From Proteobacteria bacterium UBA1148 (GTDB lineage: Bacteria; Pseudomonadota; Gammaproteobacteria; Steroidobacterales; Rariloculaceae): a stretch of 64,000 bases of DNA. The stretch spans positions 49,964-113,963 of the forward strand of contig DBZY01000049.1 of assembly GCA_002311835.1 (NCBI GenBank). The letters run 5' to 3'. Made by a program: the position numbers and the translations under genes. Positions within the stretch are counted from its first letter, which is position 1; every line of letters starts with the position of its first letter. The notes beneath the pieces are model-generated. The model was not told where the DNA came from. It saw only the letters and a program-made list of their open reading frames with translations, and made no database searches. Below are positions 45,352-64,000 of this stretch, one piece after another.

Positions 45352-46302
45352 ATGAATCTTTCCTTCGATATAGAAACACTTCGCATATTCACTAGTCGAT
45401 TGAATCAACGGGGACGATGGTTCGGCAAATATCTAGGCATTGTGCTCCAACACTATATGGCTTACGTACGATTGGTACGACTACATGAGCCAGTTGGGAT
45501 ATGGCTTTTGCTATGGCCAACTCTGTGGGCGCTGTGGATTGCTGGTGAAGGACGTCCTGACCAGCGAGTATTCATTGTATTCGTTTTTGGAACCATGGTA
45601 CTGCGTGCGGCCGGGTGCATCATGAACGATTACGCTGATCGAAAGATAGACCTTCATATCAGGCGGACGCGAGACCGGCCCTTGGCTACCGGAGAGGTTA
45701 CTATTTCAGAAGCGGCCATACTATTTGTGGGATTGATGTTGATTGGATTTGGTCTCGTATTGACGATGAACAGGCTAACTCAAGGTCTGGCAATCATCGG
45801 TGCGCTTATTACTATCATCTATCCGTTCAGCAAGAGATTCATTTCTTTCCCGCAATTTGTACTGGGGATCGCTTTTGCTTGGGGGGTCCCTATGGCGTTT
45901 GCGGCTCAGTTGGGCACCGTACCAAGGATAGGGTGGTTGTTATTCATTACAACTATCATCTGGGGGGTTATATATGATACTGAGTACGCTATGGCAGACC
46001 GAGAAGACGACCTTAAGATTGGGGTCAGATCGACAGCAATACTTTTTGGTGATTTAGATCGGGTGTTTGTCGGTGTGCTGCAATTGATGTTTCTTGGCGC
46101 ACTGATTCTAGTACGCCGAAGTGCCGAGCTTGGGGCGTGGTCTATAGTTGGCATCGCCTTAGCCGCAATTTTCTTCCTGTATCAGCAATATCTTATCCGA
46201 GACCGTGACTCCAAGCTCTGCTTTATCGCATTCAGGAACAACGCCACTTTGGGTATGTGCGTGTTCGTCAGTATTCTCTTGGATTACATCTTTAGCGGGT
46301 AG
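45352..46302 (+). CDS. ubiA: 4-hydroxybenzoate polyprenyltransferase
   Basis: It contains LLLWPTLWALWIA, the Asp-rich motif NDYADRKID and a second motif YDTEYAMADREDDLKIG. The N-terminal start is uncertain (45352 or an internal Met). Confidence 0.88.
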   Translation: MNLSFDIETLRIFTSRLNQRGRWFGKYLGIVLQHYMAYVRLVRLHEPVGIWLLLWPTLWALWIAGEGRPDQRVFIVFVFGTMVLRAAGCIMNDYADRKIDLHIRRTRDRPLATGEVTISEAAILFVGLMLIGFGLVLTMNRLTQGLAIIGALITIIYPFSKRFISFPQFVLGIAFAWGVPMAFAAQLGTVPRIGWLLFITTIIWGVIYDTEYAMADREDDLKIGVRSTAILFGDLDRVFVGVLQLMFLGALILVRRSAELGAWSIVGIALAAIFFLYQQYLIRDRDSKLCFIAFRNNATLGMCVFVSILLDYIFSG

Positions 46303-48528: not shown

Positions 48529-49515
48529 TTGAAAACCTATTTTCTTCGGTTAGCACGTGTTGGCCTTTTTCTCGCCTTCTTAGTCGTGATAGTTGGTGCC
48601 TGGGTTCGGCTGACGGACGCAGGACTCGGTTGCCCTGACTGGCCAGGTTGCTACGGGCAGTTGGTTGTTCCCGGAAGTGCGTCTGAACAGGCTGACGCGG
48701 CCACAGCCTTTCCTGAACGACCTCTAGACGTCGGAAAGGCGTGGCGCGAGATGATCCATCGCTACCTTGCGACTGGACTTGGTTTGATATGCATGCTCCT
48801 GGCAGGACTGGCATGGTTGAATAGGGCTGATCCGGCTCAGCCCAGGAGAATGCCTGCCGTGCTGTTCGGTGTAGTGGTTTTGCAGGGGCTTCTAGGGATG
48901 TGGACGGTAACATTGCTTTTGAAGCCCGTTATCGTCGTGGCTCATTTGTTGGGGGGGCTGACAACATTGGGGCTTTTGTTCTGGCTTGGCGAGTGGCACC
49001 GTGAAGATTTATTGAGCATTACACCCGCACCATTGTTAAAACTACTGGCTCCCATCGCCGTGATTGTGTTGACGCTACAGATTTCCCTGGGTGGTTGGAC
49101 GAGCGCCAACTATGCTGCGCTGGCCTGCCCGGATTTTCCAACTTGTCAGACGCGTTGGTGGCCGCCGACGGCAGATTTCCAGGAGGGATTCGTAATTTGG
49201 AGGGGTCTGGGCGTAGACTACGAAGGCGGTGTACTAGACAATCCAGCCCGCGTCTCGATTCATTTCGCACATAGACTTGGCGCCATTTTGACTACAGCCA
49301 TCTTAGGTTTCCTAGGATGGCTGATGGCGAGGAGAATTCAATTCAGGCTGGATGGAGTCGTATTGCTCGTGACGCTCATGCTACAGCTGATTATAGGTGT
49401 GAGTATTGTGCTTTACAGCGCTCCACTAGTTATCGCGGTTGCCCACAATGGGGTGGCAGCCTTGTTATTACTGACAGTTTTAAATGCTAACCAAAGAATT
49501 CGACACAATAAATGA
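48529..49515 (+). CDS. ctaA: Haem A synthase (COX15/CtaA)
   Basis: It contains GAWVRLTDAGLGCPDWPGCYG and H-containing helices (HR..A, AHL, HR.GA), with about 8 transmembrane segments. It uses a TTG start. Confidence 0.85.
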   Translation: MKTYFLRLARVGLFLAFLVVIVGAWVRLTDAGLGCPDWPGCYGQLVVPGSASEQADAATAFPERPLDVGKAWREMIHRYLATGLGLICMLLAGLAWLNRADPAQPRRMPAVLFGVVVLQGLLGMWTVTLLLKPVIVVAHLLGGLTTLGLLFWLGEWHREDLLSITPAPLLKLLAPIAVIVLTLQISLGGWTSANYAALACPDFPTCQTRWWPPTADFQEGFVIWRGLGVDYEGGVLDNPARVSIHFAHRLGAILTTAILGFLGWLMARRIQFRLDGVVLLVTLMLQLIIGVSIVLYSAPLVIAVAHNGVAALLLLTVLNANQRIRHNK

Positions 49516-50398
49516 GCCCGTAATCGCCCGCTGGCGAGACTACTACTCTCTCACGAAACCTAGGGTGGTGCAGTTATTGGTTTTTACTGCGATCGTAGGG
49601 ATGTTTCTCGCGGCGCCTGGCATGGTGCCCTGGGACATTCTCTTGTTTGGCAGCTTGGGCATCGGATTTTCGGCAGCATCTGGAGCCGCAGTCAACCACA
49701 TTCTAGATCAGCGTCTGGATGCGGAGATGGTGCGGACGCGCGATCGACCCTTACCCACAGGGCGGATTAACGAAAAAGATGCCCTGACCTTTGCGATATG
49801 CCTAGGCTTTGTGGGTATAGCAGTACTGGTACTGTTGGTGAATCTGCTGACGGCGATGCTGACTTTTCTATCGCTCATCGGGTATGCGGTGGTTTATACC
49901 GTGTACCTGAAGCGAGCGACGCCTCAAAACATTGTTATTGGTGGTGCTGCGGGAGCCTCGCCCCCAGTTTTGGGTTGGACAGCCGTAACTAATGATGTCA
50001 CAGGATACGCGCTACTACTTTTCCTGATCATATTTACTTGGACGCCACCGCATTTCTGGGCGCTGGCGGTAGCGCGTAGAGATGACTATGCAAAAGCTGG
50101 TGTGCCAATGCTACCGGTTACCCATGGGTTAGAGGTCACAAAATCTTTCGTTTTGTACTATACGATTCTCCTGCTTCTTGTCTCGTTGCTCCCCTATCTA
50201 ACGGGTGTGGCGGGAGTTCTTTATTTTTTCGGTGCACTGCTCCTCGGTGTGGGGTTTCTCTACTATGCGATCCTGCTGAAGTACGGTAGGGCTGAAAACA
50301 TTGCCATGAGGACCTTTGCATATTCAATCAGCTATCTGATCGCGCTCTTTACCTTCTTGTTAGCCGATCACTATATTCCTACTTTTTGGCCCGAGTAG
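49484..50398 (+). CDS. cyoE: Protohaem IX farnesyltransferase (haem O synthase)
   Basis: It contains YYSLTKPRVV.LL.FT, the motif N...D...D..M.RT..RPLP.GR, and TPPHFWALA. It overlaps the ctaA 3' end by 32 nt. Confidence 0.88.
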   Translation: MLTKEFDTINEPVIARWRDYYSLTKPRVVQLLVFTAIVGMFLAAPGMVPWDILLFGSLGIGFSAASGAAVNHILDQRLDAEMVRTRDRPLPTGRINEKDALTFAICLGFVGIAVLVLLVNLLTAMLTFLSLIGYAVVYTVYLKRATPQNIVIGGAAGASPPVLGWTAVTNDVTGYALLLFLIIFTWTPPHFWALAVARRDDYAKAGVPMLPVTHGLEVTKSFVLYYTILLLLVSLLPYLTGVAGVLYFFGALLLGVGFLYYAILLKYGRAENIAMRTFAYSISYLIALFTFLLADHYIPTFWPE

Positions 50399-56418: not shown

Positions 56419-57791
56419 TGGAGTGGATAGCCCTTTTAATGTTTGTCGTGGTAGTGATTGTGCTGCTCGCAGGATTTCCTGTCGCATTTTCTCTTGGTGG
56501 AATTGCGCTGATATTCGCTTGGGTTGGGGCATTACTTGGGATTTTCGATGCCGCTTTTCTTGGCACCATGCCCAACCGGGTGTTTGGAATCATGAGTAAC
56601 CAGACATTGATGGCTGTGCCACTGTTCGTTTTCATGGGCATCACGCTGGAGCGTGCCAAAATTGCCGAAAACCTCCTAGACAGTCTCAGCCGTTTGTTTG
56701 GCCAGTTGCGTGGTGGACTTGGCATCTCGGTCACTATTGTGGGGATGCTGCTCGCGGCGAGCACTGGAATTGTAGGAGCAACGGTGGTCACCATGGGGCT
56801 CCTCTCACTACCAACCATGCTACGTCGTGGCTACGATCCAGCAATAGCGACCGGCATCATTTGTGCATCGGGCACCCTCGGTCAGATAATTCCACCATCG
56901 ATTATTCTGGTACTGCTAGGGGACGTGTTGTCGTCTGCCTATAGCCAGTCGCAGCTCAATCAGGGTATTTTTTCTCCAGACACGGTGTCTGTCGGAGATT
57001 TATTCCTCGGCGCTCTGGTTCCCGGGCTCGCGCTCGTCGGACTTTATATTATTTATCTAATTGGGATCGCCATTGTAAGGCCTGAGACTATGCCTCCTCA
57101 TGAGAGTTCGGAATCCGAGAAGGCTGGTTTGAGAGAAGTGGTATCCGCTCTTTTCCCTCCTTTGATATTGATTCTTGCGGTACTGGGATCAATCATCGCC
57201 GGACTGGCAACCCCCACGGAAGCTGCCGCTGTTGGCGCTATGGGGGCCCTTCTATTGGCTCTGGTGAAAGGTCGGTTTTCCATGGGACGCTTAGTCGAGG
57301 TCATGGAGAGCACAGTTCGTATCAGTAGCATGGTTTTTCTAATCTTAATCGGTGCGTCGATATTCTCATTAGTTTTTAGAGGCTACGGTGGCGACAGTTT
57401 GGTCCATGAACTGCTCTTGAATTTACCGGGCGGTGTCGTTGGCGCCATGCTTACTGTAATGCTCTTGATGTTCCTACTAGGCTTTGTGCTCGATTTTATT
57501 GAGATAACTTTTGTTGTGGTACCCATCGTTGGCCCCATCCTATTAACAATGGGGATTGATCCCATTTGGTTGGGCGTGATGATTGCTATCAATTTGCAAA
57601 CATCCTTTTTGACGCCTCCCTTCGGATTTGCGTTGTTCTATTTGCGTGGAGTAGCTCCGGAAAGCGTTGAGACAAGGGACATTTATCGCGGCGTGATGCC
57701 CTTCGTCGCCATACAATTATTAGCTTTGGCGGCTCTGGCTCTTTTTCCGGGGCTTGCCACGTGGTTGCCCTCGGTGGTCTATGGACGCTAA
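56418..57791 (+). CDS. TRAP transporter large permease (DctM family)
   Basis: 457 aa with about 12-13 transmembrane segments and a typical DctM pattern (..MPLFVFMG..., ...FGFALFYLRGVAP...). Confidence 0.88.
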   Translation: MEWIALLMFVVVVIVLLAGFPVAFSLGGIALIFAWVGALLGIFDAAFLGTMPNRVFGIMSNQTLMAVPLFVFMGITLERAKIAENLLDSLSRLFGQLRGGLGISVTIVGMLLAASTGIVGATVVTMGLLSLPTMLRRGYDPAIATGIICASGTLGQIIPPSIILVLLGDVLSSAYSQSQLNQGIFSPDTVSVGDLFLGALVPGLALVGLYIIYLIGIAIVRPETMPPHESSESEKAGLREVVSALFPPLILILAVLGSIIAGLATPTEAAAVGAMGALLLALVKGRFSMGRLVEVMESTVRISSMVFLILIGASIFSLVFRGYGGDSLVHELLLNLPGGVVGAMLTVMLLMFLLGFVLDFIEITFVVVPIVGPILLTMGIDPIWLGVMIAINLQTSFLTPPFGFALFYLRGVAPESVETRDIYRGVMPFVAIQLLALAALALFPGLATWLPSVVYGR

Positions 57792-57813
57792 GGCGTTATC
57801 CGGAGTAGCAGTT

Positions 57814-58074
57814 CTAGTCGGTTTTTTTCTTGACGTCTAGTAACCACCATGCCAGAAAGCCGTAAATCATCAGCACGGTTGCAATGGTGATGAATGGCAG
57901 GGGGGGCAACCAGATAGGTATATCGGCAATGCTTTCATACGGTCCCAGAGCGGGCGCTATAGCTGCGCCGGCGAACAGTCCGATGAAAATACCGATGGCT
58001 AGCTTTGGCTGGTTTCGCCAGGCCAATCCCCACAGAATTAGAAAGATAACAAAGATGATTATTGCCCAAGGCAT
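57814..58074 (-). CDS. Small 3-TM membrane protein at the distal end of the oxidase cluster (unknown family)
   Basis: 86 aa from the ATG at 58074 (MPWAIIIFVIFLILWGLAW...). It has three hydrophobic segments and starts 7 nt after the stop of the subunit IV-like gene. Longer starts at 58104 or 58134 are possible. Confidence 0.4.
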   Translation of the reverse strand: MPWAIIIFVIFLILWGLAWRNQPKLAIGIFIGLFAGAAIAPALGPYESIADIPIWLPPLPFITIATVLMIYGFLAWWLLDVKKKTD

Positions 58075-58081
58075 TTCTAGC

Positions 58082-58441
58082 CTAGTGTCCTTCCTCAGTG
58101 GCATGTTCTTGTGCCACGAAGTTTGTCTCACCAAAGAAGTTCAGCCGGGTAAGTAAAGTATAGTCACCTTCCACGGCCATAAGCCCAATCAGGAAGAGAA
58201 GCAAAACTGGTGGTCCTAAAATTGCATAGATTAAGGCAACACGTTCCCATGCCATATGCATGAAGATCGCAATGATAAAGCCTGCCTTCGCAAGCATGAA
58301 GATAAGGATTAATGACCATCTCAGGTAGCTTTCAAATCCCAGGTAATCTACAAGATATGAAAGTGTGCTGAGTACGAACAGCAGTAGCCATACCCAGAGA
58401 TAGATGCTGAGAGAGTGTTCTTGGTGTCCTTCCGCTGCCAT
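58082..58441 (-). CDS. Prokaryotic cytochrome c oxidase subunit IV-family membrane protein
   Basis: About 119 aa with three transmembrane segments. The N-terminal H-rich segment followed by SIYLWVWLLLFVLSTLSYLV resembles the bacterial COX4_pro pattern. Its position after the subunit III genes supports this. The start is ambiguous (ATG 58441 or TTG 58456). Confidence 0.55.
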   Translation of the reverse strand: MAAEGHQEHSLSIYLWVWLLLFVLSTLSYLVDYLGFESYLRWSLILIFMLAKAGFIIAIFMHMAWERVALIYAILGPPVLLLFLIGLMAVEGDYTLLTRLNFFGETNFVAQEHATEEGH

Positions 58442-58449
58442 ATGGTTTT

Positions 58450-59142
58450 CTACCAAAGATAAAAGAATGCAAAAATGAATACCCAGACAAGGTCAACAAA
58501 ATGCCAGTAAAGCCCGGTAATCTCCACGATTTCGTAATTGCCCGAGGCCTCATAATCTCCTTTGAGTACTTTTAATGCGACGACGCTTAGATAGATGACC
58601 CCAATAGAGACATGTGCGCCATGGAAGCCAGTGATCATAAAAAAACTCGAGCCGAACTGAGCAGCTCCCATAGGATTTCCCCAGGGGCGTACGCCCTCTT
58701 CCACAATTAGCTTCACCCACTCAAAGGCCTGCATGCCCACAAAAGTCGCCCCGAATGCGGCGGTAATGAACATTAGAGCCGCGGTCTTAGCCCGATCTTG
58801 CCGGTAACCGTAGTTAACAGCCAACGCCATCGTGCCGCTGCTGGTAATCAAGATAAAGGTCATGATAGCGATTAGGATCAGTGGGATGGGGTCCCCTCCA
58901 AAACTCAGAGCAAAAACTTCGCTCGGATTTGGCCAAGGCACTCGTGTTGACATCCGCACGTTCATGTAGGAGGTCAGAAAGCAAGCGAAAATGAAAGTGT
59001 CGCTCAGGAGGAAAATCCACATCATGGCTTTTCCCCATGGAACCTGAAACGTTTGTTTGTCGGCACTCCAGTCGCGTGTAAAGTCTTGGAAGCCTTCGGG
59101 CAGTGCGAAAGTCGCTCCTGATTCAGACGAGTTAGATCCCAT
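58450..59142 (-). CDS. Haem-copper oxidase subunit III
   Basis: 230 aa and polytopic. It has the typical subunit III C-terminal motifs (TGFHGAHV.IG, YWHFVD.VW.F.F...Y). Confidence 0.85.
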   Translation of the reverse strand: MGSNSSESGATFALPEGFQDFTRDWSADKQTFQVPWGKAMMWIFLLSDTFIFACFLTSYMNVRMSTRVPWPNPSEVFALSFGGDPIPLILIAIMTFILITSSGTMALAVNYGYRQDRAKTAALMFITAAFGATFVGMQAFEWVKLIVEEGVRPWGNPMGAAQFGSSFFMITGFHGAHVSIGVIYLSVVALKVLKGDYEASGNYEIVEITGLYWHFVDLVWVFIFAFFYLW

Positions 59143-59156
59143 ACGACCTTAACTCT

Positions 59157-59831
59157 TTATGTAGACAGCAAGAGTCCAAACAGGATCAGCCAAATCAAAA
59201 GCAAGTAGTGCCAATAGACCGAGCATAGCTCAACGCGCAGACGTACATTAGTAATTTCCATCACGGGACTCGTTTCCAGCTTTCTCCAGACAGACAAACA
59301 GGCCCGTGCCCAGAACCAGAGTCCGCCGAGCATATGTAGACCATGTAATCCTGTCAGAATATAGAAGAACGCATCTGCGGGATTGGTAGTTACAAAGTAA
59401 CCGGCGTCGGTTAATTGTTGCCACGCGACTAATTGGCCGATTAGAAAAGCGATGGTAAGAGCACCACCCGTCGTGAGGCTTAGTCTTAGGCTGTCCAAAT
59501 TCTCCCTTCGGGCTGCTCCGCGTGCGAGTTGTAACGCGATGCTGCCCAGCACTAAAAGACCGGTGTTGAACCAAAGTAAGCTGGGATCTTGTAGCGGACG
59601 CCAGTCCGGAAACTGAGAACGCATGTTATAGACTGTTGTGAAGAGTCCAAACAAACTCGTAACTACGGCGAGAAACACCCATAGGCCAACCCGGGGGGCT
59701 GGGACCTTAGTTGTACCACCCTCTTCGATAATCCCTTGTTCAAGCCAGGGCTTTGTTTTTAGGTGCTGCAGTAGGAAGCACCAAACTAAAATGGCAACTG
59801 TGAGAGCAGCAAAAAGGAGTGAGATATTCAT
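59157..59831 (-). CDS. Second haem-copper oxidase subunit III-family protein (CoxO-like)
   Basis: 224 aa. It contains LTGLHGLHMLGG and YWHYLLLIWL.LF, which are subunit III hallmark motifs. Its start overlaps the subunit I stop by 4 nt. Confidence 0.7.
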   Translation of the reverse strand: MNISLLFAALTVAILVWCFLLQHLKTKPWLEQGIIEEGGTTKVPAPRVGLWVFLAVVTSLFGLFTTVYNMRSQFPDWRPLQDPSLLWFNTGLLVLGSIALQLARGAARRENLDSLRLSLTTGGALTIAFLIGQLVAWQQLTDAGYFVTTNPADAFFYILTGLHGLHMLGGLWFWARACLSVWRKLETSPVMEITNVRLRVELCSVYWHYLLLIWLILFGLLLST

Positions 59832-61594
59832 TTGGTGGAATGCGCGTGCTCGCGGTTTGGAATAGCGCTCATCCGAGCTGGCTCTGTTTGTGGAATAAAG
59901 TCTTCTTTTTCTCCAGGCACGCTGTAGTCATAAGGCCAGCGGTGAACCTCTGGCAGGTTATGGCCCCAGTTACCATGCTTCGGAGGCGTATCTGGTGTTT
60001 GCCACTCAAGAGTCGTGGCACCCCAGGGGTTGTGACCGGCTTTTTTGCCCTTAAAGAGACTCCAAATCATGTTAATGAAGAAGAGGCTTTGGGCTGCGGC
60101 GACTAGCAATGCAGCAACAGTGATGCCTGCGTTCATGACGTGTGCTGATTCTGGAATAAAGTCCGTGTCTCCGTAGGCGTAATATCGACGTGGAAGGCCC
60201 AAAATGCCCAGATAATGCATCGGAAGGTAGATAGAGTATGTTCCCAGCAGCGTCAACCAGAAGTGGAGTTTCCCGAGTCCTTCATGAAACATGCGCCCCG
60301 TTATTTTGGGGAACCAGTGATAAATTGCAGCAAATATAACTAGAACTGGTGACACGCCCATCACCATATGAAAGTGACCAACAACGAAATAAGTATCAGA
60401 AAGAGGCAGATCCACAGTGACATTGCCTAAGAACAGTCCCGTCAAGCCACCATGGATGAAGGTAAAAAGAAATCCGATAGCGAATAACATCGGCACTCTG
60501 AGATGAATATCTCCCCGCCATAGCGTCAATATCCAGTTGTAAACTTTCAATGCCGTTGGGACGGCGATAATGAGTGTTGTGGTTGCAAAGAAAAAACCAA
60601 AGTAAGGATTCATGCCACTGACATACATGTGATGCGCCCAGACTACAAAGCTGAGAGCACCAATGGCAACGATAGCCCAGACCATCATTCGGTAGCCAAA
60701 GATACTTTTTCTGGCGTGGACGCTCAGAATGTCAGATACGATACCGAATGCTGGTAGCGCGACGATATACACTTCCGGGTGACCAAAGAACCAAAAAAGG
60801 TGCTGAAACAGGATTGGGCTACCACCCCCATAATCAATATTCGCGCCCATGGACAGCATCTCTGGCATGAAGAAGCTGGTTCCAATTACTCGATCCAGCA
60901 GTAACATTACGCTAGCTACCAAAAGTGCTGGAAAGGCTAGCAGCCCTAGAATAGTGGCGACGAAAATACCCCACACGGACAGTGGCATTCGCATCAGTGT
61001 CATGCCACGAGTACGCGCCTGTAAAACGGTCGTTACATAGTTCAGACCCCCCATGGTAAAAGCAGCAATAAATATGATGAGCGAAAGCAGCATCAATACG
61101 ATGCCAGCGCTAGCCCCTGGCGTCCCTTCACTGATCGATTGAGGTGGGTACAGTGTCCAACCCGCTCCAGTAGGTCCACCGGGTACAAAGAAACTCGCCA
61201 ATAGCACGATGACACTCAACAAATATACCCAGAAGCTCAGCATGTTCATGTACGGGAAGACCATGTCACGGGCACCACACATCAGCGGGATCAGATAGTT
61301 GCCAAATCCTCCTAGGAACAGAGCTGTGAGGAGATAGATAACCATGATCATCCCGTGCATGGTTACGTACTGGTAGTACTCGTTCGGAGCAACCAGCGAG
61401 AAGGAATCTGGAAAACCGAGTTGTAGTCGAAACAGAAGTGATAGCACTAATGCGATCACACCAACGAAAATAGCTGTAATCGCATATTGTATTGCGATCA
61501 CCTTATGGTCCTGGCTCCAGATGTACTTTGTTATAAAAGTGTCCGGATTATGGGGATGCGTGTCGCGATCTGCGATTGCAACGTATGCCATCAA
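59828..61594 (-). CDS. ctaD: Cytochrome c oxidase subunit I (A-type)
   Basis: It contains GGGSPILFQHLFWFFGHPEVYI (with the D-channel Glu and cross-link Tyr context), WAHHMYVSGM, and HFHMV. Length is 588 aa. Confidence 0.93.
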   Translation of the reverse strand: MMAYVAIADRDTHPHNPDTFITKYIWSQDHKVIAIQYAITAIFVGVIALVLSLLFRLQLGFPDSFSLVAPNEYYQYVTMHGMIMVIYLLTALFLGGFGNYLIPLMCGARDMVFPYMNMLSFWVYLLSVIVLLASFFVPGGPTGAGWTLYPPQSISEGTPGASAGIVLMLLSLIIFIAAFTMGGLNYVTTVLQARTRGMTLMRMPLSVWGIFVATILGLLAFPALLVASVMLLLDRVIGTSFFMPEMLSMGANIDYGGGSPILFQHLFWFFGHPEVYIVALPAFGIVSDILSVHARKSIFGYRMMVWAIVAIGALSFVVWAHHMYVSGMNPYFGFFFATTTLIIAVPTALKVYNWILTLWRGDIHLRVPMLFAIGFLFTFIHGGLTGLFLGNVTVDLPLSDTYFVVGHFHMVMGVSPVLVIFAAIYHWFPKITGRMFHEGLGKLHFWLTLLGTYSIYLPMHYLGILGLPRRYYAYGDTDFIPESAHVMNAGITVAALLVAAAQSLFFINMIWSLFKGKKAGHNPWGATTLEWQTPDTPPKHGNWGHNLPEVHRWPYDYSVPGEKEDFIPQTEPARMSAIPNREHAHSTK

Positions 61595-61670
61595 AACTCC
61601 CTTCGGTGGTTGGATTAAGTGCTAACCTGCTTGCTAATTTTTGGTTAGTGTTTGAAGTTTCTAGCTTTAT

Positions 61671-63050
61671 TTATCTAAAAGTGTTCAGGTACGCGACAAC
61701 ATTATCAATATCTTGATCGTCTGAGAGGATATCAGCCATCATCATCATCTGATCTCCGTAGAGATCCAAGCGGTGTGCGCCGCGGATCTCATCCTTGAAA
61801 TTTTTTAATTGAGTGACTAGGTACCAGTCACTTTGTCCCGCCAGTGCGGGAGCGTTTAGCGCCCAAATGCCCTGTCCCTCAGCTCCATGACAGGCGGCGC
61901 AATTGATATACAGGTCCTCGCCTCGTTCAATGTCTCCCAAAACTGTTATGGGCTGAGGTTCAGCCGGCATAGTCTCAATATAGGCAGCTACATTTTTGAT
62001 TGCATCATCGCCCGCTAGTGCAATTAGTATGGGTCGCATCAAGGCGCCCGCGGTGTCCAGCTCATGAGCCCCCCGAATACCATCCCTATAGTAGCGAAGT
62101 TGGCGTTCGACATAGCGGGTGTCAAGCCCAGCTATCCGCGGCGCATTTAAAATCTGCATGCCTTGTCCCTGTTGACCGTGACAGGCGGCACACAACGCAA
62201 AACTGGCTTGGCCGAGCCCTAAGTCCGGTTCTGTTTGGGACAGCATGGCGTAGGTTGGTTGCTCATCAAGCCAAGCTTCAAAGTCAGCCTGTTCATCAAC
62301 GACGATTCGGCCTCTCATGGCGAAGTGGGCTAAACCGCAGAGCTCTTCACAGAGAATCTCGTACTCTCCCACAATGGTGGGCGTAAACCAGGTATAGGTC
62401 ACATGGCCGGGTACGAGATCCATCTTGGTTCGGAATTGAGGCACCGCAAAATCATGGAGAACGTCTTTGGATCTAAGCCACACGCGGACTGGCTGATTAA
62501 CCGGTAGGTGTACTATGGGACTTTCAATTAGGATGTCGTCTTGACCAACGGGGTCCTCTGGGTCCATGCCGAACGCGTTGTCTTTAGTGATGTGCCGAAT
62601 GTCCACATTACCAAGTTCGCCATCCTCGCCCGGGAAGCGGAAGCTCCAGTGCCATTGTTGTCCCACTGCCTCAAATTCGGATGCTTCATCCGGAACCGTG
62701 ATGAACATCGCCCAGACCACAAGACCCGGTGCCAACATCGCGATGATACCCACAGAGGTGATAATGGTGAGCCACCACTCCAGCCTGGTATTTTCTGGGT
62801 TGTAGTCGGCCTTGTGTCCATTTTCGGTGGACAGGGCTGGGTCTACTTTTTTATACCTGTACCGGAAAATGCAATAAGCAAGGAAGAGATTGGTTGTGAC
62901 GAATACAATGCCCGTGATGACAAATGTAATGTTTACCGTAAGGTCAATAAGTCCCCAGTTCGAAGCCAGTGGCGTAAAGTACCAGGGACTCAGGAAATGA
63001 AAGAGTACGCTCCCTAGCACCAACAAGACGAGCGCGACTGCTAGGGCCAT
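61671..63050 (-). CDS. ctaC: Cytochrome c oxidase subunit II fused to a C-terminal di-haem cytochrome c
   Basis: Two N-terminal transmembrane helices are followed by the CuA site (VLHDF...CEELCGLAHFAM). Two CxxCH motifs follow (CAACHGQQGQG and CAACHGAEGQG). Confidence 0.88.
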   Translation of the reverse strand: MALAVALVLLVLGSVLFHFLSPWYFTPLASNWGLIDLTVNITFVITGIVFVTTNLFLAYCIFRYRYKKVDPALSTENGHKADYNPENTRLEWWLTIITSVGIIAMLAPGLVVWAMFITVPDEASEFEAVGQQWHWSFRFPGEDGELGNVDIRHITKDNAFGMDPEDPVGQDDILIESPIVHLPVNQPVRVWLRSKDVLHDFAVPQFRTKMDLVPGHVTYTWFTPTIVGEYEILCEELCGLAHFAMRGRIVVDEQADFEAWLDEQPTYAMLSQTEPDLGLGQASFALCAACHGQQGQGMQILNAPRIAGLDTRYVERQLRYYRDGIRGAHELDTAGALMRPILIALAGDDAIKNVAAYIETMPAEPQPITVLGDIERGEDLYINCAACHGAEGQGIWALNAPALAGQSDWYLVTQLKNFKDEIRGAHRLDLYGDQMMMMADILSDDQDIDNVVAYLNTFR

Positions 63051-63134
63051 GTAATACAGGTCCTTTTATCGTCCGGCTTTATCAAGACGCGCAAATCCTG
63101 ATAGGAGGCATGGCTGTATTCTTCATGTGGCAAA

Positions 63135-63584
63135 TTACTCTACGATGAATTTTCCATTCATGAGAACATAATGGCCAGGAAAGGAGCAAAAATACGTGTA
63201 GTCACCTCCCGCCTCAAGTTCAGAAGTGTCAAAGGTAACGGTTACCTCATCACCGCCACCGATCATGCTTGTGGCGCCGATAATTCTAGGGTCACCGTTC
63301 GGCAAGTACTGGGGTGGCCCCACTGCCTGAGCCGCAGCAGCTACCGCCATGTAATCTTCAGTTCTTGTTAGTACCCAGTTATGACCCATCACATTTGCGG
63401 GTAGCTGGCCCACGTGCCTCAGATTAACTGTAAACTCTCCACAATCCGCGCTGACACGAATTTCCGCCAAGTTGTACTGAATGAGGTCGTTGCCCTCAAT
63501 GGTTTGTGAGCATTCTTGTCCCCACGCAGCTCCATAGAGAGCAGCCCAGGCCAGAAAGGCCGTCGCCGCAAGTTTCTTTCTCAT
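63135..63584 (-). CDS. azu: Azurin (type 1 blue copper protein) precursor
   Basis: A signal peptide (..AAWG/QE) precedes ECS..I.GND..Q.N...I.V...C..FTVNL.H.G.LP.NVMGHNWVL. The copper ligands are present in FCSFPGHYVLM (C-x4-H-x3-M). AGGAG lies 8 nt upstream of the ATG. Confidence 0.9.
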   Translation of the reverse strand: MRKKLAATAFLAWAALYGAAWGQECSQTIEGNDLIQYNLAEIRVSADCGEFTVNLRHVGQLPANVMGHNWVLTRTEDYMAVAAAAQAVGPPQYLPNGDPRIIGATSMIGGGDEVTVTFDTSELEAGGDYTYFCSFPGHYVLMNGKFIVE

Positions 63585-63745
63585 AGAAGACTACTCCTAT
63601 CCCAGGGTCCTGGGATCTTGGCCACGCATGTTATCAGAGCCGCGGCTAGTCGGTAATGGGGACCTAGATCAATTAGAGAATCACGATATGATTTGCAGGG
63701 AAGTACGAAAAAACCAACCCTGGGACCTTTCTGGCATAGTATAGA

Positions 63746-63870
63746 AAAAATCCCACTTAACGTGTAAATAATTCAATTTTTATAATAATTTTCCCACTTT
63801 TACATTATATTTAATAAAGTGGTGAATTAAATCTATTTTTATTGAAAAAAATGTTAAAAGTGGGAATATT
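63746..63870. repeat. Three copies of an AT-rich unit of about 30-35 nt with core TCCCACTT (two direct, one inverted), plus a degenerate inverted core
   Basis: Copy 1 is aaaaTCCCACTTaacgtgtaaataattcaa (63747-). Copy 2 is aattTTCCCACTTTTAcattatatttaataaa (63787-63819). Copy 3, reverse-complemented from 63836-63870, is aataTTCCCACTTTTAacatttttttcaataaa. A degenerate core, aaagtggtga, lies at 63816-63826. Confidence 0.5.
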
Positions 63871-64000
63871 TTGACTTTTTCCAGTAGGGTTAGCATATTT
63901 ATAATATTCACGCTCTACTCTGCCCCTTGATTAAGTGTTTTTGTAATTACGCACGTAGGCCTGGAACTTCCTCCAGCTAAGGTTGCTTCCCCATGCTGGG

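Follow-up and report, generated by a model that had tools for sequence, protein, structure and literature searches.

A cluster of seven co-directional open reading frames (ORFs) on the minus strand of a 64,000-nt stretch of the marine gammaproteobacterium Proteobacteria bacterium UBA1148 (the window, whose numbering is used throughout) begins with a gene for azurin and continues with coxII, coxI, cox3a, cox3b, cox4 and a small ORF, orf7 (nt 57814 – 63584). With a probability that we put at roughly 60%, the seven genes are one operon, read from a promoter 5' of azurin, that specifies a second, alternative A1-type cytochrome c oxidase of the coxMNOP/ccaa3 kind along with a soluble electron carrier of its own. 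The core of five oxidase genes is of an already known and widespread type; what is lineage-specific is the position of azurin directly 5' of coxII, and orf7. The family-wide arrangement of azurin and coxII suggests that azurin feeds electrons to the oxidase. The cluster is more than a chance assemblage: curated cut-offs are exceeded by six of its seven products, and dozens of genomes share its gene order. In what follows, L-numbers are loci and G-numbers are genomes of the comparison samples, G000 being the window's own genome.

Azurin and the oxidase subunits

All seven ORFs of a preliminary description of the window were recovered at their positions. With corrected gene starts, the intergenic gaps are, in cluster order, 84, 76, -4, 14, 8 and 7 nt. 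The azurin gene (nt 63135 – 63584, minus strand, as are all features of the cluster) encodes a precursor of 149 aa with a signal peptide, and scores 147.5 bits against TIGR02695 (cut-off 105.1). Its hydrophobic N-terminus ends in AWG/QECS. The four copper ligands, H68, C133, H138 and M142, lie in the motifs GHNW (at residue 67) and C133-x4-H-x3-M, and the N-terminal disulphide pair (Cys25/Cys48) is also present in the translation. The closest solved structure is azurin-1 (6l1v_A, E = 1.3e-37), with which the ligand motifs align. From these features the protein is an exported azurin with an intact type-1 copper site, at which copper binding is predicted. It is the sole PF00127 match found in the genome.

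Subunit II (CoxM-like, 459 aa; nt 61671 – 63050) matches Pfam COX2 (63.7 bits) and, in two stretches, Cytochrom_C (87.4 bits); its score of 130.3 against the NCBIfam CoxB equivalog is under the cut-off of 147.7. N-terminal membrane helices are followed by a CuA cupredoxin domain and by 190 C-terminal residues that match the dihaem cytochromes c4 (1etp, 6q2u). The CuA motif, CEELCGLAHFAM at residue 234, conforms to the pattern H...C-x-E-x-C-x3-H-x2-M and, together with the upstream histidine, aligns with that of Paracoccus subunit II. CAACH occurs at residues 287 and 384, and haem attachment there is predicted from sequence. With its two C-terminal predicted c-haem sites, the protein is a subunit II of the ccaa3 type.

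Subunit I (CoxN-like, 588 aa; nt 59828 – 61594) scores 478 bits against PF00115 and 671.7 against TIGR02891 (cut-off 670.75). Its motifs are GHPEV(Y) at residue 271, WAHHM at 319, GHFHM at 406, and TMHG; judged from these motifs, all six histidine ligands of haem a, haem a3 and CuB are retained, as are the cross-linked tyrosine and the D-channel glutamate of helix VI. GHPEV aligns where the A2-type caa3 enzyme of Thermus (2yev_A) has YSHPTV, so the window's haem-copper oxidase is A1-type. The assignment to type A made in the preliminary description is thereby narrowed, by this motif and by TIGR02891.

The next two genes encode paralogues of subunit III. Cox3a (CoxO-like, 224 aa; nt 59157 – 59831), which overlaps coxI by 4 nt, matches PF00510 at 33 bits (cut-off 23.8) over profile positions 128 – 250. 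Cox3b (CoxP-like, 230 aa; nt 58450 – 59142) matches it at 74.9 bits, and scores best against CyoC (106 bits) and QoxC (103 bits), both under their cut-offs. The two are related over their whole length (26% identity across ~200 aa, E = 2e-8), and hydropathy gives about five hydrophobic segments in each. Subunit IV (cox4; COX4_pro, CyoD/QoxD-like, 119 aa; nt 58082 – 58441) matches PF03626 at 49.8 bits (cut-off 28.9) and has three hydrophobic segments, taken as helices. Comparison with relatives makes the ATG at nt 58441 its most likely start; a TTG at nt 58456 would give 124 aa. Taken together, the predicted subunits are those of a proton-pumping oxidase of type A1, intact in sequence, with CuA and a fused pair of c-haems.

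The preliminary description had correctly seen the full ligand set and signal peptide of azurin, and both the CuA motif and the two C-terminal CxxCH motifs of CoxII can be read in the translation. Its count of two extra small membrane proteins stands for one of them: orf7 is lineage-specific, while the COX4_pro protein is part of the conserved core.

Conservation of the azurin-coxII arrangement

A search with CoxII, limited to one genome per species, gave 372 relatives, of which the best 80 loci were kept. Wherever tblastn reached cox4, which was the case at 60 loci, the order is coxII-coxI-cox3a-cox3b-cox4; the other 20 stop before that gene, most of them at a contig end. Carriers of the oxidase core include cultured Halomonas, Billgrantia, Rheinheimera and Pseudoalteromonas. 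In 13 of these 80, coxII is directly preceded by azurin on the same strand. A quick CoxI tree (LG+G4) was calculated from 67 rows: 65 loci and the window, with the genome's canonical CoxI serving as outgroup. It omits L015, in which the match contains a stop, and any locus whose aligned part of CoxI is shorter than 500 residues. All 13 rows with azurin fall in a single clade (SH-aLRT 96), which is embedded among clades that have a different gene, for an unnamed 2-helix protein, upstream of coxII.

Sampling of the window's order (151 genomes, 24 families) places the adjacency more narrowly. Azurin was found in 37 of these genomes and subunit II (E ≤ 1e-60) in 53, while the two are adjacent in 10, all of them members of the window's family. 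In genomes of other families that hold both genes, these are on different contigs or ~30 kb apart. Within the window's own family (41 genomes), subunit II is present in 35 genomes and azurin in 33. By coordinates, azurin precedes coxII by 27 – 170 nt in 30 of the 35 genomes that have the latter, representing 10 of 13 genera, and the pairing is kept although CoxII has diverged down to 56% identity. The survey of the adjacency that had been proposed in the preliminary description has thus found it to be conserved across much of the family. The five exceptions lack azurin and span three genera (G008; G062 and G158; G076 and G157). Family azurins that are at least 56% identical to that of the window are all directly before coxII, save one extra copy (G154). 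Three genomes of the genus g57 have an azurin of 46 – 49% identity and are without the CoxII of this oxidase. One family member, G173, has two azurin-coxII pairs on different contigs (C139:2278-4139 and C33:59833-61666).

The gene position upstream of coxII is variable outside the azurin clade. The unnamed 2-helix protein (e.g. L077:3343-3909, L036:6425-6997, L072:6357-6929, L088:6314-6925, and others) is encoded directly 5' of coxII at 35 of the 80 loci; at 8 others its gene adjoins cox4. Members of this family are ~188 – 216 aa long, with a GAWEGG motif and, in the centre, a hairpin of two helices. They match no family of Pfam or NCBIfam, and none was found in the window's genome. An AlphaFold2 model (pLDDT 76.6) gave ActD of alternative complex III (ACIII) in the top four Foldseek rows, none of them at E ≤ 1e-3, and the profile of the family compared with the ActD of G000 reached a probability of 6.8%, which is a lead only. 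A TlpA/ResA-like thiol-disulphide oxidoreductase gene (L057:5240-5890, L022:6186-6893, L025:6372-7004, and others) is directly 5' of coxII in 7 rows of the CoxI tree, in another clade, and a ctaB-like prenyltransferase gene has this position in L038 and L082.

In G008, one of the azurin-less members of the family, the same dtd-tat neighbourhood is found, with a DctP-like gene in the slot of azurin. In G076 (L090:959-3570, contig C3) two secreted dihaem c4-like cytochromes of 241 and 215 aa are encoded upstream of coxII, with identities of 46% and 43% to the c-domain of subunit II in the window. The slot also has an ORF of 138 aa whose likeness to subunit II is confined to the membrane N-terminus, and the ACIII genes actA/actB diverge from the oxidase cluster.

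Within the order sample, a family of small genomes (f22, 1.1 – 1.5 Mb; e.g. G022, at C5:33936-34799 and C5:67441-67839) carries two azurin genes, one of them in an open frame of ~221 – 226 aa. The subunit II of f22 is shorter (~363 aa) and matches only residues 1 – 296 of the window's protein. One azurin gene is ~33 – 35 kb from this coxII on the same contig in 4 of 11 of these genomes (G022, G071, G120, G134); in the others, azurin and coxII are either similarly far apart or on separate contigs.

Evidence for a single transcription unit

The azurin-coxII spacer (84 nt; nt 63051 – 63134) includes a Shine-Dalgarno sequence, AGGA. No terminator-like site was found in it, and no stable or unusual fold (z-score -0.38); a terminator at this point was one of the observations by which the preliminary description could have been overturned, and the operon reading is left unharmed. 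Among 11 relatives, conservation of the spacer is limited to the Shine-Dalgarno sequence and start codon, and in L021 its length shrinks to ~23 – 27 nt. A conserved block was found only 5' of azurin: the promoter-like element TTACCG-N17-TAACAT (nt 63628 – 63656), ~45 nt 5' of the azurin ATG, is kept upstream of azurin in L009, L012, L010 and L013. Beyond azurin there is a 460-nt AT-rich gap, followed by the divergent genes dtd, tatB and tatC. At the other end of the cluster, orf7 faces a convergent TRAP transporter gene, the end of which is 22 nt away. The ANR/FNR pattern TTGATNNNNATCAA, with up to 2 mismatches allowed, gave 31 matches relative to 31.5 expected, none of which is upstream of azurin.

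Six seawater or marine metatranscriptome runs hold 6 – 10% of the sampled words of the region, and the contigs of four of these runs, from four studies, were compared with the window. Short contigs, mostly 97 – 100% identical to it, lie on azurin, coxII, coxI, cox3a, cox3b and cox4. Two contigs of run X2 (nt 62857 – 63107 and 63103 – 63253) jointly cover the azurin-coxII spacer. A contig of run X3 extends from inside azurin to nt 63605, 21 nt 5' of its ATG, and no further. The runs compared have no contigs on nt 63703 – 63900 or nt 57700 – 57906, a hole that proves nothing. It is likely that azurin is co-transcribed with the oxidase genes.

Other respiratory genes of the genome

The window belongs to a contig of 162 kb in an assembly of 2.63 Mb that is 92.5% complete. 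Elsewhere in it is a canonical caa3 oxidase (C88:1-5350 and C41:17000-25503; L092, L091), whose genes for surf1, a monohaem coxII, coxI, ctaG and coxIII are split over two contig ends. Its CoxI is 40% identical to that of the window, and no further PF00115 gene was found in the genome beyond these two oxidases. The canonical cluster appears to run on into a GldC-like gene and a complete set of ACIII genes (actABCDEF). That the window's cluster is without ctaG, surf1 and sco, as first described, is borne out: the canonical caa3 cluster has ctaG and surf1, and the genome carries two sco genes at other places. The haem genes ctaA (nt 48529 – 49515) and ctaB (nt 49484 – 50398) are indeed nearby, at a measured 7.4 kb from the azurin-oxidase cluster (about 8 kb as first given). 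A second UbiA-family prenyltransferase gene, probably ubiA, is located 3 kb upstream of ctaA (nt 45352 – 46302).

Neither cytochrome b nor cytochrome c1 was found in the window's assembly. Since cytochrome b is present in most of the family sample (32 of 41 genomes, including all 4 of the same genus), the lack of a cytochrome bc1 complex in G000 is probably an assembly gap; the assembly is 2.63 Mb compared with 3.8 – 5.9 Mb in the genus. ActD was found in 15 of the 41. A specific role of ACIII as the reductant of azurin was considered and dropped, as five genomes with the azurin-cox arrangement (G045, G142, G028, G098 and G149) have cytochrome b but no ActD.

A small membrane protein that accompanies the oxidase

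The last gene, orf7 (nt 57814 – 58074), begins 7 nt past the cox4 stop and encodes a three-helix membrane protein of an unnamed family. Its start is the conserved ATG at nt 58074 and not the TTG at nt 58134, as in relatives an ATG is found 13 residues before a conserved LWG motif; the length of 86 aa first reported was therefore correct. Searches of Pfam, NCBIfam and the ESM Atlas yielded no usable match, in keeping with its first description as unclassifiable. The 15 aligned homologues of 84 – 95 aa share 18 invariant columns, the conserved ATG and three hydrophobic segments, and dN/dS values of 0.20 – 0.48 in four pairs are those of purifying selection, so that orf7 is both coding and conserved. 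A profile compared with 1.84 billion cluster representatives gave 44 matches at E ≤ 1e-3, nearly all of 50 – 120 aa.

Homologues of orf7 do stand next to the oxidase elsewhere, a point on which the preliminary description had called for a search. They occur in 32 of the 41 family genomes and, in 29 of these 32, on the oxidase contig, 3.5 – 4.3 kb past coxII; in the other three, all fragmented assemblies, orf7 is on a separate contig. In L029 and L031 (G011) it sits upstream, ahead of the unnamed 2-helix protein. As orf7 also accompanies the oxidase in G008 and G158, both without azurin, it tracks the oxidase and not azurin. A relationship to subunit IV was rejected, since hhalign of the family alignments (orf7 and COX4_pro) gave a probability of 0.2%. 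Between the last two helices and the hairpin of the 2-helix family there is a weak similarity (hhalign probability 60%, E = 8.6e-5, 46 columns), and this too is a lead only.

A proposed respiratory role for azurin, and its rivals

Azurin is a model protein whose physiological partner has long been uncertain. Vijgenboom and co-workers are said to have stated, in the title of a 1997 paper, that an obligatory part played by azurin in denitrification is disproved. If the seven genes of the window work together, periplasmic azurin would receive electrons from a quinol-oxidising complex, with or without c-type cytochromes in between, and reduced azurin would pass its electrons to the c-haems of subunit II. 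From there they would move to CuA, haem a and the a3-CuB centre, where O2 would be reduced and protons pumped. We infer from the arrangement a dedicated path from azurin to haem c to CuA. Cofactor insertion would depend on genes elsewhere (ctaA/ctaB at 7.4 kb, ctaG and surf1 of the canonical caa3 cluster, and the two sco genes), and orf7 may serve the oxidase, rather than azurin, as an accessory membrane subunit or an assembly factor specific to the lineage. A bolder and tentative version, which we are less inclined to accept than to doubt, is that azurin is the dedicated physiological reductant of the ccaa3 enzyme and stands where a sister genus has soluble c4-type cytochromes, and that orf7 is in addition a new oxidase subunit, possibly derived from the membrane hairpin of an ActD-like protein whose gene is the first of this operon in other lineages.

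Several points weigh against a single operon in which azurin serves the oxidase. The slot upstream of coxII holds, in other loci, the 2-helix protein, a TlpA-like gene or ctaB, and is therefore not reserved for carriers. RNA libraries may contain DNA, so the contig cover is a hint and not proof. The related Ccaa3 enzyme of Pseudomonas pseudoalcaligenes KF707 (see below) was expressed at a very low level and no role was found for it, according to the available text of the study (PMC5492768). The remaining points against it are best taken together with the explanations that they favour.

The strongest of these explanations, though an unlikely one in our view, is that azurin is co-transcribed with the oxidase for the sake of shared regulation (e.g. 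by copper supply or growth phase), its true partners being other periplasmic enzymes. Contig C23 encodes a candidate of this kind, a 430-aa member of CCP_MauG (either a dihaem cytochrome c peroxidase or like MauG), and this protein and several c-type cytochromes could be the partners of azurin instead. Azurins are known to serve several partners. The oxidase also occurs without azurin, both in 5 of 35 family genomes and in all other families sampled, and the reverse is true of the three g57 genomes, which keep an azurin without CoxII. What such an explanation does not account for easily is that azurins of at least 56% identity stay directly before coxII in 10 genera with diverged spacers, the extra copy in G154 being the exception, and that in G076 the vacant slot is taken by c4-type cytochromes.

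A second explanation is that the synteny was inherited without any functional coupling, azurin and the oxidase genes being separate transcription units that have merely stayed together since one insertion. The single origin of the adjacency on the CoxI tree means that part of its conservation is plain inheritance, no single RNA contig from the four runs bridges azurin and coxII, and a spacer of 84 nt could house a weak promoter missed by a consensus scan. We regard this as improbable, as the spacer is reduced to ~23 – 27 nt in L021 and has neither a terminator-like site nor a stable hairpin, RNA-library contigs link the spacer with azurin on one side and with coxII on the other, and the arrangement persists in 30 of 35 genomes with CoxII diverged to 56% identity. 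Least credible of all is a function of azurin in copper handling or CuA maturation, in the slot that elsewhere has a TlpA-like maturation factor (7 CoxI-tree rows) and in a cluster without its own ctaG or sco, given that sco and ctaG are present elsewhere in the genome, that the protein passes the equivalog cut-off as a canonical azurin and has the disulphide and all four type-1 copper ligands, and that we know of no chaperone role for azurin.

The reading of the cluster as an azurin-headed oxidase operon has consequences beyond this genome. It names a concrete candidate acceptor for azurin, the dihaem domain of a ccaa3 oxidase, and the dedicated-reductant version, if true, would give azurin a defined respiratory job. 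It also suggests that coxMNOP/Ccaa3 enzymes can draw their electrons from a carrier with copper in place of one with iron, which may be of consequence where seawater is poor in iron. Lastly, orf7 and the unnamed 2-helix protein represent two small, unannotated families that track the oxidase.

Comparison with known systems

By gene order and domains, and not by orthology of CoxN, the core of the window's cluster is predicted to be of the coxMNOP type, or COX operon subtype a-III. The latter term denotes clusters with duplicated COX3 in the available text of a preprint by Degli Esposti and co-workers (10.1101/2020.03.01.968255). As far as the available text of Sandri et al. 2017 (PMC5492768) goes, CoxM of P. 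pseudoalcaligenes KF707 carries two c-haem sites, from which the name 'Ccaa3' is given, CoxO and CoxP are subunit-III homologues, and coxMNOP clusters also occur in Bradyrhizobium and other bacteria. The window shares with KF707 the order II-I-III-III, the CuA site and two C-terminal CxxCH motifs in subunit II, the absence of ctaG from the cluster, and the status of a second oxidase beside a canonical caa3, so that the likeness to coxMNOP and ccaa3 enzymes first noticed in the preliminary description holds. Where the two differ is that the KF707 description, in its available text, mentions neither an azurin gene nor an orf7 (PMC5492768). In a literature search, largely of titles and abstracts, no description was found of an azurin-oxidase adjacency, or of a true azurin heading a coxMNOP-type operon. 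The Ccaa3 cluster of Shewanella oneidensis, which we take to include cox11/coxG and a single subunit III, would be unlike the window in these respects. The resemblance is in subunit II, which has two c-haems there as well (SO4606-4609, as cited in the available text of PMC5492768).

The rus operon of Acidithiobacillus ferrooxidans (cyc2-cyc1-cup-coxBACD-rus) has a cupredoxin gene just before COX2, judging from the available text of the same preprint (10.1101/2020.03.01.968255). Like the window, it combines a cupredoxin gene before COX2 with an aa3-type oxidase, COX3 and COX4 in one operon, and it places a dihaem cytochrome between the carrier and the oxidase. Its cupredoxins are AcoP ('cup') and rusticyanin, whereas that of the window is an azurin, and its dihaem cytochrome is the separate Cyc1, whereas the window's dihaem domain is fused to subunit II. 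The rus system oxidises extracellular Fe(II) via an outer-membrane cytochrome, and the window's cluster holds nothing comparable. Cyc2, a separate Cyc1 and rusticyanin/AcoP are all absent from the cluster, and the resemblance is one of logic only.

A third comparison is with Chloroflexus, in which, as described in the available text of PMC3150298, ACIII reduces the cupredoxin auracyanin. The window's chain would be similar in having a type-1 blue copper carrier after a quinol-oxidising complex, and its genome has a full ACIII; the azurin-cox genomes that have cytochrome b and lack ActD mean that the link is not ACIII-specific. The gene arrangement is also different, for the auracyanin genes of Chloroflexus are, on the same partial account, distant from both the ACIII and the cox operons, whereas the azurin gene of the window directly adjoins coxII.

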